A DNA stretch of 19,742 nt from a virus. Its lineage: Duplodnaviria; Heunggongvirae; Uroviricota; Caudoviricetes. Position numbers and translations under genes: made by a program. Positions 154 through 19,742 of this stretch are shown one piece after another; the first letter of the stretch is position 1; each line of letters opens with the position of its first letter. The stretch lies in the IMG/VR virus record IMGVR_UViG_2681813004_000004; one strand, 5' to 3'. The notes below the pieces were generated by a model. It was not told where the DNA came from and ran no database searches. It worked only from the letters and a program-made list of their open reading frames with translations.

Positions 154-259
154 AAAGGCCTTATATGTTTGTAGAGACTTATTTTTCACAGACAGCAATG
201 ATGCCTGTCAATATATTATCAATATGCGGATTGTTTCAGTTACAGATGCTTTATTAAGG

Positions 260-302
260 AAAAAAACAGCCAGCACTGACTTTCGGTGGAGAGGTGCTGG
301 CT
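260..302 (-). terminator. Second copy of the A-run plus hairpin module (agccagcac / gtgctggct)
   Basis: Inverted repeat 268-276 / 294-302 preceded by A7 at 260-266; same architecture as 112-153 with compensatory stem changes. Confidence 0.25.
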
Positions 303-2788: not shown

Positions 2789-3253
2789 TGTTTTGTTATG
2801 AAGGTGTTACTGGTAACGTTAAGGTAATTTAACAAAGAGTCAGTTCCGGACTTTATAGTGTGCTCAGTTCATGGCCAAAAACGATTTCTGTGATAAATAT
2901 TTTGAATATTATTTACAGGTAAATGGAGTGGGGCACATGGATAGAAATATTACAATAGAGAATGAAGTATATGCCCGTATTGTATGGGCAGAGAAGGCAA
3001 AAACACGGTAATTCCGTGTGTTGCCATGATACCTGATTGGCAGAATAGTTGTTTGGTTTTGAGTATATAGTCAGCGTTTTTTGTTCAGTAATTGCTCCCT
3101 CAAAAAATAATAAAATAAGGTGATTATTTTTGTTTATTATTTAGTTTTTTTTGTGTGTTGTTTTATTGTTTTTGCGTGGTTTGTTTTTTATTGTTATTTC
3201 ATTAAGGGAAGGTAAATTCAGGATGGCAGTCTGTAGATAATCGGAGGTCACTT

Positions 3254-3568
3254 ATGCTACATGATCACGTGGCAGAATGTCTGGAGAAAAAAGGACTGTA
3301 CCGGAGAGCAGCTGAACGATGGGCAAAAGTGATGGTACAGCTAAGTGATGACCAGAAAAGAAAAGTAGCGGCACAGAAACGAGCAGAGTGTTTGCGTAAG
3401 GCGCGCCGGACTCCGGTTTCACCGGTGAACCTGACCGAAATAAAACAAGCGGTCAACAGACTACATTCTGAGTTGGGAATGGGATTTGAAGAGCGGCGGG
3501 TATTCCGACGATATAAAGGGACAGGAGAACAGAATACGTCCGGAAACGCGCGGTCAAAAAAATGCTAA
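3254..3568 (+). CDS. PerC-family-like transcriptional regulator (Pch-like), 104 aa; moron
   Basis: GGAGG about 6 nt upstream of ATG; the motif LEKKGLYRRAAERWAKVM matches my recollection of the PerC/Pch family; basic C-terminus; sits between Rz and cos where lambdoid prophages carry morons. Confidence 0.6.
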   Translation: MLHDHVAECLEKKGLYRRAAERWAKVMVQLSDDQKRKVAAQKRAECLRKARRTPVSPVNLTEIKQAVNRLHSELGMGFEERRVFRRYKGTGEQNTSGNARSKKC

Positions 3569-3604
3569 AAAATATCTGAGAGAGTTATTGCCTGTTACCA
3601 TAAG

Positions 3605-3632
3605 AAAAAGCGACTTTAGTGGTCGCTTTTTG
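3605..3632. terminator. Bidirectional rho-independent terminator between convergent genes
   Basis: aaaagcgac / gtcgctttt stem with 7-nt loop, flanked by an A-run upstream and a T-run downstream; lies between the + gene ending 3568 and the - gene ending 3650. Confidence 0.6.
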
Positions 3633-3649
3633 TGTCATATATAAGTCGT

Positions 3650-3874
3650 TTAAGTAAACCTGTCTGAACAGGTGCTCTGGTCGTGTTTGTCTTTGTTGGG
3701 TACAAATTGAGAATATTTTTCATTAATTAATCTTCTTCTGCAGGCTTCAATAACCCACGCTGAAAAATTACCTGAACCTTTCAGGTCAAGAGCGATGTTA
3801 ATTTGTTCAATTATCTGGTTTGGAAATCGGATGTTGCGGGTTGTTGTTCTGCGGGTTCTGTTCTTTGATGACAT
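3650..3874 (-). CDS. Small putative ribbon-helix-helix-like DNA-binding protein (74 aa), possibly DUF3950/YlcI-like
   Basis: ATG-initiated minus-strand ORF; basic N-terminus followed by IRFPNQIIEQINIALDLKG...SAWVIEACRRRL, consistent with a beta-strand plus two helices; adjacent to cos as in several E. coli prophages (from memory). Confidence 0.5.
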   Translation of the reverse strand: MSSKNRTRRTTTRNIRFPNQIIEQINIALDLKGSGNFSAWVIEACRRRLINEKYSQFVPNKDKHDQSTCSDRFT

Positions 3875-4081
3875 AATGTTGCCCCGTATTCAGTGTTGCT
3901 GATTTGTATTATCTGAAGTTGCTTTTACGCTAATTTGATGCAGATCAATTAATACGATACCTGCGTAATAATTGATTATTTCTCGTGGTTTGATGGCGTA
4001 CACACATGTCGTGATAAACCTCATGTAGATGATAATTATTATCATTTTCGTGGGTCCTTTCCGGCGATCCGACAGGTTACG

Positions 4082-4093
4082 GGGCGGCGACCT
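4082..4093 (+). other. cosN cohesive-end sequence GGGCGGCGACCT, copy 1, preceded by a cosQ-like segment
   Basis: 12-nt sequence identical to the lambda cohesive end as I recall it, preceded by ...tcctttccggcgatccgacaggttacg (lambda right-end / cosQ-like). Confidence 0.7.
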
Positions 4094-4187
4094 CGCGGGT
4101 TTTCGCTATTTATGAAAATTTTCCGGGGTTATTGCTCAATAATTATTATCATTTTTCGGGTCCTTTCCGGCGATCCGACAGGTTACG

Positions 4188-4199
4188 GGGCGGCGACCT
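4188..4199 (+). other. cosN cohesive-end sequence GGGCGGCGACCT, copy 2 (the copy adjacent to cosB)
   Basis: Same 12-mer and same flanks as copy 1; followed directly by the R3-I1-R2-R1-like array. Confidence 0.75.
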
Positions 4200-4235
4200 C
4201 GCGGGTTTTCGCTATTTATGAAAATTTTCCGGGAT

Positions 4236-4344
4236 CCATGTCCGGTTTCTCTTCAAGTTAACTATATGAAAAATATAAAAACAGGTCTTCTGTGAACCGG
4301 ACATGAACAAAAAACAGACATGTAAACCGGACATGACCGGTTTT
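4236..4344 (+). promoter_or_regulatory. cosB-like terminase small-subunit binding region: three R elements sharing the core aaccggacatg (one inverted) and an A/T-rich IHF-like site
   Basis: catgtccggtt at 4238-4248 (inverted), aaccggacatg at 4295-4305 and 4325-4335, A/T-rich segment 4256-4285 between the first two; immediately upstream of the Nu1-like gene. Confidence 0.6.
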
Positions 4345-4382
4345 GTTGTGATTGTGAGGTGAGAGTTTTTGCGAGGTGAGGA

Positions 4383-4892
4383 GTGGCTACGCAGACTGAA
4401 GTTGCCAGGCATTTAAGTCTGACCGATCGCCAGCTTCGCAGATTGCAGAAATTGCCGGGTGCCCCGATATCGAATAAGCGAGGGCAACTGGATCTGGATG
4501 CCTGGCGCGATTTTTACATATCGTATCTGAGGAGAAGTAAAAACGATGTGCCTGATGGCGATAGCGAAGACGACTATGAGGAGAAATTGCTTATTGCCAG
4601 ATGGGAACTGACAGCAGAACAGGCTGTTACACAGCAGTTAAAAAATGAGGTGTCAAAAGGAAAACTTATTGACACCGGGTTCTGTATTTTTGCCCTCAGT
4701 AAGCTGGCAATGGCGTTATCCAGTACGCTTGATTCCATCCCTTTATCCATGCAACGACAGTTTCCTGATTTAACACCGCGCCATCTTGACCATCTGAAAA
4801 CCCTTATTGCGAAGGGGGCAAATCAGTGTGCGCGGGCGGGGGATAAATTACCGGATTTACTCGATGAATATATCAGAGCAACAACTGAATAA
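4383..4892 (+). CDS. nu1: Terminase small subunit (Nu1-like), GTG start, 169 aa
   Basis: C-terminal half (FCIFALSKLAMALSSTLDSIPLSMQRQFPDLTPRHLDHL...LLDEYI) resembles lambda Nu1; N-terminal region is HTH-like; GAGGTGAGGA precedes the GTG; directly downstream of cosB. Confidence 0.8.
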   Translation: MATQTEVARHLSLTDRQLRRLQKLPGAPISNKRGQLDLDAWRDFYISYLRRSKNDVPDGDSEDDYEEKLLIARWELTAEQAVTQQLKNEVSKGKLIDTGFCIFALSKLAMALSSTLDSIPLSMQRQFPDLTPRHLDHLKTLIAKGANQCARAGDKLPDLLDEYIRATTE

Positions 4893-6792
4893 TATGATGA
4901 GTGCTGTCACAACAGCATTACAGCCCCTGATAAGGGCATTGCCGGTGACGCCAGTTGAATGGGCTGATCAAAATTATTATCTGCCTAAAGAATCTTCATA
5001 TGGTGAGGGAGAATGGAAAACGCTGCCATTCCAGATCGCCATTATGAACTGTATGGGTAACGACCAGGTTCGCACGGTTAACCTGATTAAATCTGCCCGT
5101 GTTGGCTATACAAAGATGTTGCTGGGGGTGGTCGGGTATTTTATTGAGCATAAATCCCGAAACAGTCTGCTTTTTCAGCCCACGGATTCTGCCGCTGAAG
5201 ATTTTATGAAGTCTCACGTGGAGGCGACGATTCGGAACGTGCCATGCCTGAAAGACCTTTCCCCATGGCTGGGTCGTAAACATCGTGACAATACTCTCAC
5301 GCTGAAACGCTTTTCATCGGGCGTCGGTTTCTGGTGCCTGGGCGGCGCTGCCGCCAAAAACTACCGTGAAAAATCCGTGGACGTGGTCTGCTATGACGAA
5401 CTTTCCTCGTTCGAGCCGGATGTCGAAAAAGAGGGCTCGCCAACCCTGCTGGGGGATAAGCGTATTGAGGGGGCGGTGTGGCCAAAATCCATTCGCGGCT
5501 CGACGCCTAAAATCAAAGGCACCTGCCAGATCGAAAAAGCCGCTAACGAGTCGGCGCATTTTATGCGTTTTTATGTGCCCTGCCCGCACTGTGGGGAGGC
5601 GCAGTATCTGAAATTTGGCGATGAGTCCACGCCTTTTGGGCTTAAATGGGAGAAGGACAGCCCCGAAAGTGTTTTCTACCTCTGTGAACATCATGGCTGC
5701 GTGATCCATCAGTCTGAACTGGACCAGAGCAACGGGCGGTGGATCTGTGAAAACACGGGCATGTGGACCCGTGACGGTCTGACGTTTTTCAGCGCCCGGG
5801 GTGATGAAATTCCGCCGCCGCGCTCCATCACGTTCCATATCTGGACGGCGTACAGTCCGTTTACCACCTGGGTACAGATAGTCTATGACTGGCTGGATGC
5901 ACTGAAAGATCCCAACGGCCTGAAAACCTTTGTGAACACCACGCTGGGCGAGACCTGGGAAGAAGCCGTGGGCGAAAAACTCGATCACCAGGTACTGATG
6001 GATAAGGTCGTGCATTACACGGCGGCGGTACCTGCCCGGGTGGTTTATCTGACGGCGGGCATTGACTCGCAGCGAAACCGTTTTGAGATGTATGTCTGGG
6101 GATGGGCACCGGGAGAGGAAGCTTTTCTGGTGGATAAAATCATCATTATGGGCCGTCCCGATGAGGAAGAGACGCTGTTACGTGTGGATGCGGCGATCAA
6201 CAAAAAATACTGCCATGCAGACGGAACCGAAATGACCATTTCCCGTGTCTGCTGGGACACCGGGGGGATCGATGGTGAAATTGTCTATCAGAGGTCAAAA
6301 AAACACGGTGTTTTCCGGGTGCTGCCGGTAAAAGGCGCATCTGTCTATGGCAAGCCGGTGATCACCATGCCGAAAACCCGCAATCAGCGGGGCGTGTATC
6401 TGTGTGAAGTGGGGACGGACACCGCAAAAGAAATTCTCTATGCCCGTATGAAAGCCGATCCCACTCCTGCGGATGAAGCCACGTCGTATGCCATCCGTTT
6501 TCCTGATGATCCGGAGATTTTTTCGCAGACAGAGGCGCAGCAACTGGTGGCGGAAGAGCTTGTGGAGAAGTGGGAAAAAGGAAAGATGCGTCTGCTGTGG
6601 GATAACAAAAAGCGGCGTAACGAAGCGCTGGACTGCCTGGTGTATGCCTACGCGGCATTACGTGTGTCCGTGCAACGCTGGCAGCTTGATCTGGCTGTAC
6701 TGGCAAAATCCCGGGAAGAAGAGACGACCCGGCCAACCCTGAAAGAACTGGCAGCGAAGCTGTCCGGAGGAGTGAATGGTTACAGTCGCTGA
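4864..6792 (+). CDS. A: Terminase large subunit (gpA-like), 642 aa
   Basis: MNISEQQLNN...VEWADQNYYLPKES...KNYREKSVDVV.YDEL...FVNTTLGETWEE...WDNKKRRNEALDC is near-collinear with lambda gpA. The ORF-track start at 4807 is a non-ATG 5' extension; ATG at 4864 matches the lambda start. Confidence 0.95.
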   Translation: MNISEQQLNNMMSAVTTALQPLIRALPVTPVEWADQNYYLPKESSYGEGEWKTLPFQIAIMNCMGNDQVRTVNLIKSARVGYTKMLLGVVGYFIEHKSRNSLLFQPTDSAAEDFMKSHVEATIRNVPCLKDLSPWLGRKHRDNTLTLKRFSSGVGFWCLGGAAAKNYREKSVDVVCYDELSSFEPDVEKEGSPTLLGDKRIEGAVWPKSIRGSTPKIKGTCQIEKAANESAHFMRFYVPCPHCGEAQYLKFGDESTPFGLKWEKDSPESVFYLCEHHGCVIHQSELDQSNGRWICENTGMWTRDGLTFFSARGDEIPPPRSITFHIWTAYSPFTTWVQIVYDWLDALKDPNGLKTFVNTTLGETWEEAVGEKLDHQVLMDKVVHYTAAVPARVVYLTAGIDSQRNRFEMYVWGWAPGEEAFLVDKIIIMGRPDEEETLLRVDAAINKKYCHADGTEMTISRVCWDTGGIDGEIVYQRSKKHGVFRVLPVKGASVYGKPVITMPKTRNQRGVYLCEVGTDTAKEILYARMKADPTPADEATSYAIRFPDDPEIFSQTEAQQLVAEELVEKWEKGKMRLLWDNKKRRNEALDCLVYAYAALRVSVQRWQLDLAVLAKSREEETTRPTLKELAAKLSGGVNGYSR

Positions 6793-14894: not shown

Positions 14895-17454
14895 TCTTGT
14901 TATTGACCTTAGTCTGGATGCGGTCCGTTTCGATGAGCAGATGAGCCGGGTAAGGCGTCATTTTTCAGGTCTGGATACCGACGCCAGAAAAACCGCCAGT
15001 GCTGTTGAACAGGGCCTGAGCCGCCAGGCGCTGGCTGCACAAAAAGCCGGGATTTCCGTCGGGCAGTATAAAGCGGCCATGCGAACCCTGCCCGCACAGT
15101 TTACGGATATCGCCACGCAGCTTGCCGGTGGTCAGAATCCCTGGCTGATCCTGCTGCAACAGGGCGGTCAGGTGAAGGACTCCTTCGGCGGGATGATCCC
15201 CATGTTCAGGGGGCTTGCCGGTGCGATCACCCTGCCGATGGTCGGGGTCACCTCGCTGGCGGTGGCGACAGGTGCGCTGGCGTACGCCTGGTACCAGGGG
15301 GATTCCACGCTTTCAGCGTTTAATAAAACCCTGGTTCTTTCCGGTAATCAGTCCGGACTGACTGCCGATCGTATGCTGACTCTCTCAAGAGCCGGGCAGG
15401 CAGCAGGGCTGACGTTTAACCAGGCGAGAGAGTCACTGGCAGCCCTGGTGAATGCCGGTGTGCGTGGTGGTGAACAGTTTGATGCCATCAACCAGAGTGT
15501 CGCGCGTTTTGCGTCTGCATCCGGTGTGGAGGTGGATAAAGTCGCTGAAGCCTTCGGGAAGCTGACCACTGACCCGACGTCGGGACTGATGGCGATGGCG
15601 CGCCAGTTCCGTAACGTGACGGCAGAGCAGATTGCGTATGTTGCACAGCTGCAGCGTTCCGGAGACGAGGCCGGGGCATTGCAGGCGGCGAACGATATCG
15701 CCACGAAAGGCTTTGATGAGCAGACCCGTCGCCTGAAAGAAAACATGGGAACACTGGAGACCTGGGCGGATAAAACAGGGAAGGCATTCAAATCGATGTG
15801 GGATGCCATTCTGGATATCGGTCGTCCGGAATCCTCAGCGGATATGCTCGCCAGTGCGCAGAAGGCATTTGATGAGGCGGATAAAAAATGGCAGTGGTAC
15901 CAGAGTCGGAGCCAGCGCCGCGGTAAAACCTCCTCTTTCCGGGCCAACCTTCAGGGCGCATGGAATGACCGGGAAAATGCCCGTCTGGGGCTGGCAGCGG
16001 CCACGCTGCAGTCGGATATGGAAAAAGCCGGTGAACTGGCCGCCAGGGACCGGGCCGAACGGGACGCATCACAGCTGAAGTATACCGGAGAGGCGCAGAA
16101 GGCGTATGAGCGTCTGCTGACGCCGCTGGAGAAATATACCGCCCGTCAGGAAGAACTGAATAAGGCCCTGAAAGACGGGAAAATCCTGCAGGCGGATTAC
16201 AACACGCTGATGGCGGCGGCGAAAAAGGATTATGAATCGACGCTGAAAAAGCCGAAGTCGTCAGGAGTCAAAGTGTCAGCCGGTGAGCGTCAGGAAGACC
16301 AGGCGCATGCTGCCCTGCTGGCGCTTGAAACCGAGCTCCGGACGCTGGAAAAACACAGCGGTGCGAATGGGAAAATCAGCCAGCAGCGTCGCGATTTATG
16401 GAAAGCGGAAAATCAGTATGCGGTCCTGAAAGAGGCAGCCACGAAACGGCAGTTATCTGAGCAGGAAAAATCCCTGCTGACCCATGAGAAAGAGACGCTG
16501 GAGTACAAACGCCAGCTGGCTGAGCTGGGAGACAAAGTTGAACACCAGAAACGGCTGAATGAGCTGGCACAGCAGGCTGCGCGGTTTGAGCAGCAGCAGG
16601 GCGCGAAGCAGGCGGCAATCAGTGCCCAGGCGCGGGGCCTCACCGACCGTCAGGTGCAGCGGGAGTCGGAAGAGCAGCGCCTTCGTGACGTGTACGGTGA
16701 TAATCCGGATGCGCTGGCGAAGGCCACATCTGCACTGAAGAACACCTGGTCTGCGGAGGAGCAGCTTCGTGGAAGCTGGATGGCCGGTCTGAAGTCCGGC
16801 TGGGGCGAGTGGGCAGAAAGTGCGACGGACAGTTTTTCGCAGGTTAAAAGCGTGGCCACGCAGACCTTTGACGGTATTGCACAGAATATGGCAGCGATGC
16901 TGACCGGCAGCGAACAGAGCTGGCGTGGTTTCACCCGTTCTGTGCTCTCCATGTTGACAGAGATTTTTCTGAAGCAGGCCATGGTGGGGATTGTCGGGAG
17001 TATTGGCAGCGCCATGGGTGGTGCTTTCGGTGGTGGGGCGTCTGCCTCCACGGGGACGGCCATTCAGGCTGCGGCGGCGAACTTCCATTTCGCGACCGGA
17101 GGATTTACGGGAACCGGTGGCAAATACGAACCTGCCGGTATTGTCCACCGCGGGGAGTTTGTCTTCACGAAGGAGGCAACCAGCCGGATTGGCGTCGGCA
17201 ACCTGTATCGTCTGATGCGCGGGTATGCGGAAGGTGGTTATGTGGGCGGTGCCGGAAGTCCGGCGCAGATGCGGCGGGCGGAAGGCATTAGTTTTAATCA
17301 GAACAATCACGTGGTGATTCAGAACGACGGCACCAACGGACAGGCGGGGCCGCAGCTGATGAAGGCGGTGTATGACATGGCCCGCAAGGGGGCGCAGGAT
17401 GAGATTCAGGCGCAGATGCGTGATGGCGGCGTCTTTTCCGGAGGCAGGCGATGA
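14875..17454 (+). CDS. H: Tail tape measure protein gpH-like, 859 aa
   Basis: MSQPVGDLVIDLSLDAVRFDEQMSRVRRHFSG... and long stretches collinear with lambda gpH; GGAGGTG RBS. Confidence 0.95.
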   Translation: MSQPVGDLVIDLSLDAVRFDEQMSRVRRHFSGLDTDARKTASAVEQGLSRQALAAQKAGISVGQYKAAMRTLPAQFTDIATQLAGGQNPWLILLQQGGQVKDSFGGMIPMFRGLAGAITLPMVGVTSLAVATGALAYAWYQGDSTLSAFNKTLVLSGNQSGLTADRMLTLSRAGQAAGLTFNQARESLAALVNAGVRGGEQFDAINQSVARFASASGVEVDKVAEAFGKLTTDPTSGLMAMARQFRNVTAEQIAYVAQLQRSGDEAGALQAANDIATKGFDEQTRRLKENMGTLETWADKTGKAFKSMWDAILDIGRPESSADMLASAQKAFDEADKKWQWYQSRSQRRGKTSSFRANLQGAWNDRENARLGLAAATLQSDMEKAGELAARDRAERDASQLKYTGEAQKAYERLLTPLEKYTARQEELNKALKDGKILQADYNTLMAAAKKDYESTLKKPKSSGVKVSAGERQEDQAHAALLALETELRTLEKHSGANGKISQQRRDLWKAENQYAVLKEAATKRQLSEQEKSLLTHEKETLEYKRQLAELGDKVEHQKRLNELAQQAARFEQQQGAKQAAISAQARGLTDRQVQRESEEQRLRDVYGDNPDALAKATSALKNTWSAEEQLRGSWMAGLKSGWGEWAESATDSFSQVKSVATQTFDGIAQNMAAMLTGSEQSWRGFTRSVLSMLTEIFLKQAMVGIVGSIGSAMGGAFGGGASASTGTAIQAAAANFHFATGGFTGTGGKYEPAGIVHRGEFVFTKEATSRIGVGNLYRLMRGYAEGGYVGGAGSPAQMRRAEGISFNQNNHVVIQNDGTNGQAGPQLMKAVYDMARKGAQDEIQAQMRDGGVFSGGRR

Positions 17455-17780
17455 AAACATTTCGCTGGAAAGTGAAGCCGGATATGGAGGTGAACTCGCA
17501 GCCATCGGTGCGTGAAGTGCGTTTTGGTGACGGGTATTCGCAGCGTATGGCGGCGGGGCTGAATGCTGACCTGAAAACATACCGTGTGACGCTTTCCGTG
17601 ACCCGGGAGGAGGCCCGACATCTGGAGGCATTCCTGGCAGAGCACGGTGGCTGGAAGGCGTTTCTGTGGACACCGCCTTATGCCTGGCGGCAGATAAAGG
17701 TGACCTGTGCCGCCTGGTCATCACGGGTTCGCATGCTGCGGGTTGAATTCAGCGCGGAGTTTAAGCAGGTGGTGAACTGA
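17451..17780 (+). CDS. M: Minor tail protein gpM-like, 109 aa
   Basis: MKTFRWKVKP...VRFGDGYSQR...LKTYRVTLSV...HGGWKAFLWTPPYAWRQIKVTCAAWSSRV.MLRVEFSAEFKQVVN closely matches lambda gpM. Confidence 0.93.
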   Translation: MKTFRWKVKPDMEVNSQPSVREVRFGDGYSQRMAAGLNADLKTYRVTLSVTREEARHLEAFLAEHGGWKAFLWTPPYAWRQIKVTCAAWSSRVRMLRVEFSAEFKQVVN

Positions 17781-18478
17781 TGCAGGATATTCACGAAGAA
17801 AGTCTGAACGAGTCGGTTAAATCAGAGCAGTCACCGCGGGTGGTACTCTGGGAAATCGACCTGACGGTACAGGGTGGTGAGCGGTATTTTTTCTGCAATG
17901 AGCTGAATGAAAAAGGGGAGGCGGTCACCTGGCAGGGGCGGCAATATCAGGCATACCCGATTGACGGCAGTGGCTTTGAGATGAACGGGAAGGGCAGCAG
18001 TGCCCGCCCGTCGCTGACGGTGTCGAATCTGTTCGGTCTGGTCACCGGAATGGCGGAGGACCTGCAGAGCCTGGTGGGGGCCACGGTGGTCCGCCGCCGG
18101 GTGTATGCCCGTTTTCTGGATGCGGTGAATTTTGTGGCGGGCAATCCGGAAGCGGACCCGGAGCAGGAGCTGAGCGACCGCTGGGTGGTGGAGCAGATGT
18201 CAGAGCTGACGGCCATGACAGCCTCGTTTGTGCTGGCAACACCGACGGAGACGGACGGAGCGCTGTTTCCCGGTCGCATCATGCTGGCGAACACCTGTAT
18301 GTGGGATTACCGGGGAGATGAATGCGGGTATAACGGTCCTGCGGTGGCGGATGAGTTCGATAAACCCACCACCGATATCCGTAAGGACAGATGCAGCAAG
18401 TGCATGCGCGGGTGTGAGATGCGCGGCATGGTGGCTAATTTTGGCGGTTTCCTTTCCATTAACAAACTTTCGCAGTAA
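17780..18478 (+). CDS. L: Minor tail protein gpL-like, copy 1, 232 aa
   Basis: Position after M; size equals lambda gpL; C-terminal Cys-rich region (CMWDYRGDECGYNG...CSKCMRGC). Confidence 0.9.
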   Translation: MQDIHEESLNESVKSEQSPRVVLWEIDLTVQGGERYFFCNELNEKGEAVTWQGRQYQAYPIDGSGFEMNGKGSSARPSLTVSNLFGLVTGMAEDLQSLVGATVVRRRVYARFLDAVNFVAGNPEADPEQELSDRWVVEQMSELTAMTASFVLATPTETDGALFPGRIMLANTCMWDYRGDECGYNGPAVADEFDKPTTDIRKDRCSKCMRGCEMRGMVANFGGFLSINKLSQ

Positions 18479-18483
18479 ATCCA

Positions 18484-18840
18484 ATGACACAGACAGAATC
18501 AGCGATTCTGGCGCATGCCCGGCGGTGTGTGCCTGCGGAGTCGTGCGGCTTCGTGGTGAGAACGCCGGAGGGGGAGCGGTATATCCCTTGTGTGAATATC
18601 TCTGCAGAGCCGGAGGCGTATTTTCGTATTGCACCGGAAGACTGGCTGCGGGCAGAGATGCAGGGGGAGATTGTGGCACTGGTCCACAGTCATCCCGGTG
18701 GTCTGCCCTGGCTGAGCGAGGCCGACCGGCGGCTGCAGATAAAAAGTGCACTGTCCTGGTGGCTGGTCTGCCGGGGGGAAATTCATAAATTCCGCTGTGT
18801 GCCACATCTGACAGGACGGCGCTTTGAGAGCAGGTGGTGA
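18484..18840 (+). pseudogene. K: Truncated gpK-like ORF (K', 118 aa) retaining the N-terminal JAB/MPN-type motif; truncated at the duplication junction
   Basis: MTQTESAILAHARRCVPAESCGFVV...IVALVHSHPGGLPWLSEADRR...HLTGRRFE then SRW-stop, read from M-end sequence in another frame; full-length lambda gpK is about 199 aa. Confidence 0.7.
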
Positions 18841-18844
18841 ACTG

Positions 18845-19543
18845 ATGCAGGATATTCACGAAGAAAGTCTGAACGAGTCGGTTAAATCAGAGCAGTCACC
18901 GCGGGTGGTACTCTGGGAAATCGACCTGACGGTACAGGGTGGTGAGCGGTATTTTTTCTGCAATGAGCTGAATGAAAAAGGGGAGGCGGTCACCTGGCAG
19001 GGGCGGCAATATCAGGCATACCCGATTGACGGCAGTGGCTTTGAGATGAACGGGAAGGGCAGCAGTGCCCGCCCGTCGCTGACGGTGTCGAATCTGTTCG
19101 GTCTGGTCACCGGAATGGCGGAGGACCTGCAGAGCCTGGTGGGGGCCACGGTGGTCCGCCGCCGGGTGTATGCCCGTTTTCTGGATGCGGTGAATTTTGT
19201 GGCGGGCAATCCGGAAGCGGACCCGGAGCAGGAGCTGAGCGACCGCTGGGTGGTGGAGCAGATGTCAGAGCTGACGGCCATGACAGCCTCGTTTGTGCTG
19301 GCAACACCGACGGAGACGGACGGAGCGCTGTTTCCCGGTCGCATCATGCTGGCGAACACCTGTATGTGGGATTACCGGGGAGATGAATGCGGGTATAACG
19401 GTCCTGCGGTGGCGGATGAGTTCGATAAACCCACCACCGATATCCGTAAGGACAGATGCAGCAAGTGCATGCGCGGGTGTGAGATGCGCGGCATGGTGGC
19501 TAATTTTGGCGGTTTCCTTTCCATTAACAAACTTTCGCAGTAA
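18845..19543 (+). CDS. L: Minor tail protein gpL-like, copy 2, identical to copy 1
   Basis: Identical 232-aa translation; ATG at 18845 (the ORF-track start at 18824 is a TTG extension created by the junction). Confidence 0.85.
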   Translation: MQDIHEESLNESVKSEQSPRVVLWEIDLTVQGGERYFFCNELNEKGEAVTWQGRQYQAYPIDGSGFEMNGKGSSARPSLTVSNLFGLVTGMAEDLQSLVGATVVRRRVYARFLDAVNFVAGNPEADPEQELSDRWVVEQMSELTAMTASFVLATPTETDGALFPGRIMLANTCMWDYRGDECGYNGPAVADEFDKPTTDIRKDRCSKCMRGCEMRGMVANFGGFLSINKLSQ

Positions 19544-19548
19544 ATCCA

Positions 19549-19742
19549 ATGACACAGACAGAATCAGCGATTCTGGCGCATGCCCGGCGGTGTGTGCCTG
19601 CGGAGTCGTGCGGCTTCGTGGTGAGAACGCCGGAGGGGGAGCGGTATATCCCTTGTGTGAATATCTCTGCAGAGCCGGAGGCGTATTTTCGTATTGCACC
19701 GGAAGACTGGCTGCGGGCAGAGATGCAGGGGGAGATTGTGGC
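19549..19742 (+). CDS. K: gpK-like tail protein, copy 2, 5' portion only (continues beyond the window)
   Basis: Identical to the first 64 codons of K'; frame is open to the window edge. Confidence 0.8.
   Translation, partial: MTQTESAILAHARRCVPAESCGFVVRTPEGERYIPCVNISAEPEAYFRIAPEDWLRAEMQGEIV

Follow-up and report, generated by a model that had tools for sequence, protein, structure and literature searches.

The 3' end of a prophage contig from Escherichia coli carries a perfect tandem repeat of tail gene L and the 5' part of tail gene K, which is real in the deposited record but most likely not real in the organism. We interpret it as a false duplication made in assembly, in which pieces that truly overlap were abutted without being merged, and we put the probability of this reading at roughly 0.7. 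An earlier note on this sequence had left the choice between a duplication of very recent date and an error of assembly. The second option is favoured here, since the repeat runs into the contig end, its junction is unique, its left edge falls on a probable merge point, and the same contig contains another seam at cos.

The window, by which we mean the whole stretch of DNA that was analysed, is the entire 19,742-nt contig AOTC01000212.1 of the draft E. coli assembly GCA_001447405.1. The features discussed below are collected in Table 1. The 1065 nt of the first copy are followed directly by a second copy, which matches them over 914 nt with 0 mismatches and reaches the last base of the window; to the left of 17764 and of 18829 the identity stops. 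An exact repeat of 914 nt cannot have originated by chance. When the window was compared with itself by BLAST, this was the only long internal repeat, and the one other repeat lay at cos. Because the window is the whole contig, copy 2 is cut at the contig end, and no more than 64 codons of the second 'K' are present. Apart from this, the earlier note had described the record accurately: its coordinates, the perfect identity, the 118-aa length of K' and the gene order M, L, K', L, K, as also given by the list of open reading frames, were all confirmed. As the contig ends within copy 2, an intact downstream K and the full length of copy 2 lie outside its view. The opposite contig end is prophage sequence too, with a SASA esterase and the lysis region.

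Table 1. Features of the window, in the order of their positions.
Feature	Position	Strand	Basis or remark
Doubled cos region	4032..4233	+	Copies 4032-4127 and 4139-4233
Tail gene M, 109 aa	17451..17780	+	ORF list; Pfam Phage_min_tail, E=7.5e-39
Repeat copy 1, 1065 nt	17764..18828	+	Exact identity to 18829-19742
Tail gene L copy 1, 232 aa	17780..18478	+	Pfam Phage_tail_L, E=6e-92, residues 31-230
K', 118 aa	18484..18840	+	K residues 1-115, then SRW and stop
Junction ...CTTTGAG/AGCAGGTGG... (18828/18829)	18821..18836	.	Blunt
Repeat copy 2, 914 nt	18829..19742	+	Cut by contig end
Tail gene L copy 2, 232 aa from ATG	18845..19543	+	ORF list
K 5' fragment, 64 codons	19549..19742	+	Cut by contig end; Pfam Prok-JAB positions 3-57

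Copy 1 comprises the last 17 nt of M, which include a Shine-Dalgarno-like AGGTGG, the whole of L and codons 1-115 of K. The two L proteins are identical, with a full-length match to Phage_tail_L, and exactly this protein is present on 988 contigs. For the second L the gene caller chose a TTG at 18824 as the start, which gives a 239-aa product reading across the junction. K' and the K fragment each come after an L gene, and gene I lies beyond the contig end; in relatives the gene order is L-K-I-(sodC)-J.

The domain content of K' was assessed with Pfam and by comparison with an intact K of 247 aa (WP_001357741) from a prophage of E. coli EC-107 that is 99.9% identical. The intact protein has a Prok-JAB domain at residues 3-105 and an NlpC/P60 domain at residues 111-224. 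In K' the Prok-JAB domain is complete (E=5e-16, residues 3-105) and the JAMM motif is kept (E19...H68-S-H70-x7-S78-x2-D81), whereas the NlpC/P60 domain is missing, as the protein departs from the native sequence after residue 115. The earlier note had stated that K' keeps the JAB/MPN motif and loses the C-terminal NlpC/P60 part, and these data bear it out. The break comes after ...TGRRFE, six residues ahead of the NlpC/P60 cysteine (residue 121, in TDCYTL), and sits at the border between the two domains; the terminal SRW and stop are read from the end sequence of M in another frame. In the part of their study available to us, Iyer, Burroughs & Aravind (2006; PMC1779556) describe TAPK as a JAB plus NlpC/P60 protein adjoining the ubiquitin-like protein I. 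The intact 247-aa relative agrees with this lambda gpK/TAPK family in both its domains and its place between L and the ubiquitin-like I. K' differs from the family in that it has lost the NlpC/P60 half, while the JAB half is kept and its JAMM motif is complete. The same part of that study mentions natural versions of TAPK with NlpC/P60 only, suggested to be possibly degenerate prophage forms, and within it a JAB-only copy beside a full K is not described.

The junction itself reads ...GGCGCTTTGAG/AGCAGGTGGTGAACTGATG..., where a normal K goes on with CACGGGGTGACGGACTGT, and it has zero microhomology on either side. The repeat unit begins 16 nt upstream of L and so brings along the AGGTGG ribosome-binding sequence of L; the stop codon of K' stands 4 nt ahead of the second L ATG. 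A shared k-mer giving rise to a de Bruijn loop was considered as the source of the join and excluded, since the K site resembles the M/L site only loosely, in TTTxAGCA, and the join has an extra AG. This leaves either a blunt biological join or abutted pieces. Judged from the sequence at the join, abutment is favoured over a k-mer loop as its origin, and a blunt junction with zero microhomology is what abutted pieces would be expected to give. Duplications that arise independently of RecA in E. coli usually show short homologies.

We then asked how the segment and its junction are represented in other genomes. Of 5,426 complete E. coli genomes, 4,364 contain the M-L-K segment, at 15,243 places in all (median 3, maximum 16 per genome), and the segment was also found in 267 phage records. 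The best relatives, which are 99.9% identical, match over 1,529 nt, which corresponds to a single copy. By megablast with a 300-nt probe, the junction was spanned by no sequence among the 5,426 complete E. coli genomes, 50,697 phage records and the plasmids of PLSDB; an exact 47-nt pattern and a degenerate 26-nt pattern had 0 matches in IMG/VR, the GTDB representatives and the JGI metagenomes, and none of 80 IMG/VR loci encoding L, taken with their flanks, contained it. At the protein level, both K' and the junction-spanning 239-aa L occur on AOTC01000212.1 alone in a collection of 153 billion gene positions. Strain VTEC+ (H51) at first sight covered the full probe and was rejected as a carrier of the junction: its M-L-K locus is normal, and an L/K deletion had brought two pieces within the joining distance of the tool. 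In the 90% cluster of K', which numbers 1,556 members, the label 'partial' is attached to most of the 15 entries listed, an indication that draft E. coli contigs often break inside K.

The edges of the repeat were compared with natural variation in the panel of 80 IMG/VR loci mentioned above. The 3' end of M is of three types in this panel, ...GAGTTTAAG, ...CGATAGAG and ...CGATTGAG (in short ...TTTAAG, ...ATAGAG and ...ATTGAG), and in each the sequence continues with CAGGTGG. The base from which all three types agree is 17764, and the repeat begins at precisely this position; just upstream of it, homology to the window drops away in 34 of 83 loci. A random breakpoint would fall on this base about 1 time in 1000. 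Going by these alleles, 17764 is the predicted merge point of an assembly graph wherever a genome has several lambdoid prophages. The other edges relate to single-nucleotide variation. The last base of copy 1, 18828, is a common SNP site (G58/A19; 19 of 77), the base after it being invariant in the panel, and 18678 is another (A57/G20; 20 of 77), copy 2 ending one base short of the position equivalent to it. The fit is therefore exact at the left edge and at the contig end, and one base off at 18828. Common SNP sites have a background density of 11%, and the adjacency of the two junction edges to such sites is only moderately significant (about 0.02), so that the exact match to the module boundary is the stronger argument. 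Edge positions of this kind matter to an assembler, not to recombination. The two copies also have in common a private synonymous SNP (17926/18991), as would be given by the same consensus used twice. No locus in the panel was identical to the window over 17764-18677, the closest having 1 mismatch, and hence none matched this stretch while differing at both flanking SNPs, as an allele directly reproducing the 914-nt piece would.

A second seam was found at cos. Here the two copies share a perfect 76-nt core (4052-4127 and 4158-4233), which contains GGGCGGCGACCT, and 11 unmatched nt lie between the copies. On its left, the second copy is flanked by the sequence of a different natural allele, as found for example in strain L73. 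Each of the 5,426 complete E. coli genomes has cos in single copy, and in none of them is it doubled. The 30-nt filler between the cores was examined as a possible natural allele and rejected as such; its right 19 nt are natural, its left 11 nt (GTTATTGCTCA) match nothing found, and the filler sequence had 0 matches in IMG/VR. Window positions 157-295, which are extra in comparison with the prophage of E. coli C7, were likewise considered as a seam, and turned out to be ordinary intergenic variation. Both repeated cores, L-K and cos, are sequence common to different prophage alleles, and a shared technical cause explains two private duplications within 19.7 kb far better than two independent events would.

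Based on these observations, the repeat probably came about as follows. The strain would have several lambdoid prophages sharing the L-K segment, of which a co-resident second prophage with the same 914-nt stretch is assumed. The assembler or scaffolder would have yielded one long piece ending at 18828 and a second, short piece of the shared sequence (17764-18677), bounded where the prophage copies differ. The two overlapping pieces would then have been put end to end, abutted unmerged, and would thereby mimic a perfect tandem duplication broken off by the contig end; neither a K' protein nor a second L gene would exist in the cell itself. We infer this joining step from the presence of the repeat and its location at the contig end, from the uniqueness of the junction, and from the edge coincidences and the cos seam, all of which were observed directly. 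Several features of the record are those of a false duplication: the adjacent copies are 100% identical and the segment is multi-copy in E. coli (median 3, maximum 16), the edges are at the contig end and at the predicted branch point with the right edge within 1 nt, and the same contig has another seam, at cos, with mixed alleles. Against abutment it must be said that the seam contains no N, and that a gap is what many pipelines would insert instead of abutting the pieces. A real recent duplication, moreover, would likewise be perfect and private, with the private SNP in both copies. False duplications in which contained or overlapping contigs are duplicated and set side by side were described by Kelley & Salzberg (2010; PMC2864568) and are also documented in Ko et al. 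(2022; PMC9516828). The present case resembles theirs in that identical or nearly identical pieces stand side by side where the sample holds slightly different copies, and in that what emerges looks like a tandem or segmental duplication with false gene gains. It differs in the source of the variant copies, which in those cases were diploid haplotypes and here would be co-resident lambdoid prophages, and in that the pieces are abutted without a gap.

The main competing explanation, which we regard as unlikely, is that the tandem duplication of 1,065 bp is real and very recent and belongs to one lambdoid prophage of the strain. Illegitimate (non-homologous) joining would have linked codon 115 of K to the sequence 16 nt ahead of L, and the locus would then read M-L-K'-L-K-I-J, with L encoded twice and a free JAB/MPN protein, K', beside an intact two-domain K. 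This is how the deposited sequence reads, and most assemblers would need read support for a novel junction. Judging by the arrangement at the join, everything would remain expressible, with 3 extra codons on K', a 4-nt gap and L's own AGGTGG; the breakpoint lies at the JAB/NlpC-P60 border, 6 residues ahead of the NlpC/P60 cysteine, and the perfect identity and the shared private SNP would suit a very young event. On the other hand, the repeat meets the contig end, so that the structure is never closed, and there is no second example in the 15,243 homologous places or the other collections searched, nor is the junction found in any independent assembly or related genome among those searched. 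The zero microhomology also counts against it. A real duplication would further require that its left breakpoint fell by coincidence exactly on the base where the M/L alleles converge, and the cos duplication in the same contig would have to be another rare event, independent of the first. Among phages and prophages, real tandem duplications are known from the classical lambda duplication mutants. The repeat is like these in being a head-to-tail repeat of about 1 kb, which is tolerated within packaging limits. Those duplications, however, are closed on both sides and have mapping or read support, whereas the one described here is unique and is left open by the end of the contig.

It is also conceivable, though we consider it very improbable, that the junction is physically real without being a simple tandem duplication in one prophage. 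In one form of this explanation, the 5' remnant of K in one prophage would be fused to the M/L border of a second prophage of the same genome that has an alternative M allele; in another, the junction would exist in a sub-population of molecules, for example in induced, replicating phage DNA. In either form the assembler would have threaded the junction through collapsed identical sequence. The presence of several lambdoid prophages per genome is the rule, and there is slight support in the AG at 18827-18828, which also fits the 3' end of the alternative M allele ...ATAGAG/CAGG. A further slight point comes from the closest relative of the window, the prophage of E. coli C7 (NZ_CP010240.1; 99.9% identical over M-L-K'), where a real inversion breaks K 39 nt downstream and K is thus rearranged in nature. 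There too the break in K closely follows the JAB domain, at nt 384 as compared with 345 here, but the rearrangement is an inversion of about 450 bp across K-I in a finished genome, not a duplication, and its junction sequence is another one. Such a hybrid would need an odd real junction in addition to an assembly collapse, and the private SNP in both copies argues for the same consensus or the same prophage.

A false duplication made in assembly thus remains our preferred reading, and it determines how the consequences drawn in the earlier note, a doubled dosage of L and a free MPN domain, are to be taken: they hold only if the duplication is real, which we doubt. That a lambdoid prophage has just split off a free, JAB/MPN deubiquitinase-like K' beside an intact K, with L doubled, is accordingly improbable. 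If it were true, the locus would be a natural experiment in domain fission and dosage on the K/I (JAB/ubiquitin-like) step of tail-tip assembly, and it might be of modest use for asking whether the JAB half of K acts alone on the ubiquitin-like I; as a structural variant of a common prophage it would at the same time be private and probably transient. If the repeat is an assembly error, as we favour, the error would put a spurious JAB-only protein and an additional L into the protein databases, where both are already found as singletons. Perfect tandem 'duplications' at the ends of draft contigs in multi-copy prophage regions should therefore not be equated with gene gains or new domain architectures.

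An unusual arrangement was observed in the window, in that its cos region is present in two copies. Their repeated core is perfect over 76 nt, an 11-nt filler without a match (GTTATTGCTCA) accompanies them, and on its left side the second copy has the flank of another natural allele. This doubled arrangement was found in none of 5,426 complete E. coli genomes, nor was it found in IMG/VR. The doubled cos region is probably a second assembly seam of the window, in addition to that suspected at 18828|18829. Past the 3' end of the SASA esterase gene, the window also carries an intergenic surplus of about 140 nt relative to E. coli C7. This surplus includes a second terminator-like hairpin and has the appearance of ordinary allelic variation.

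Coordinates of features in the window and in related loci
Feature	Sequence	Coordinates	Strand
Intergenic surplus	window	157-295	
Cos region, two copies, containing GGGCGGCGACCT	window	4032-4233	
Cos repeat core	window	4052-4127 and 4158-4233	
Synonymous SNP in L	window	17926 and 18991	
Interrupted K	L001 (E. coli C7, NZ_CP010240.1)	21185-22506	
L/K border with deletion	L004 (E. coli VTEC+, NZ_CP182512.1)	1517-2812	
Moron between L and K	L029 (IMG/VR)	3200-4946	
sodC, between I and J	L003 (E. coli EC-107)	5697-6224	opposite
sodC, between I and J	L001	22693-23220	opposite

Rearrangements of K and L were also observed in relatives. In E. coli C7, the closest finished relative, K is interrupted at nt 384, and about 450 bp is inverted, comprising the 3' half of K together with the 5' part of I; in the RefSeq annotation the outcome appears as four partial pseudogenes. 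In VTEC+, about 150 bp is deleted over the L/K border, which truncates L and gives rise to a 232-aa 'C40 family peptidase' overlapping it. Some lambdoid prophages (L029, L020, L031 and L070 of IMG/VR) contain a moron of about 1.7 kb between L and K. One of its genes is for a Bro-N domain protein (E=4e-20), and another, oppositely oriented, is for an Arc/ribbon-helix-helix protein.

Further cargo is carried by the closest relatives, L003 and L001, both of which encode the Cu/Zn superoxide dismutase SodC; the equivalent region falls past the end of the window contig. The C7 prophage additionally carries nleB2, nleC, nleH and nleF, all downstream of the tail fibre genes.

Both copies of the repeat carry the synonymous SNP in L. 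This SNP is private to the contig, being absent from all 80 IMG/VR loci as well as from the best complete-genome matches.

At 90% identity, the cluster containing K', the 118-aa K fragment read across the repeat junction, has 1,556 members. Among the 15 members listed, the majority are K fragments at contig ends, of widely differing lengths (66-150 aa), and many 'short JAB proteins' in public protein collections are therefore artefactual, having been seeded there by draft E. coli assemblies.
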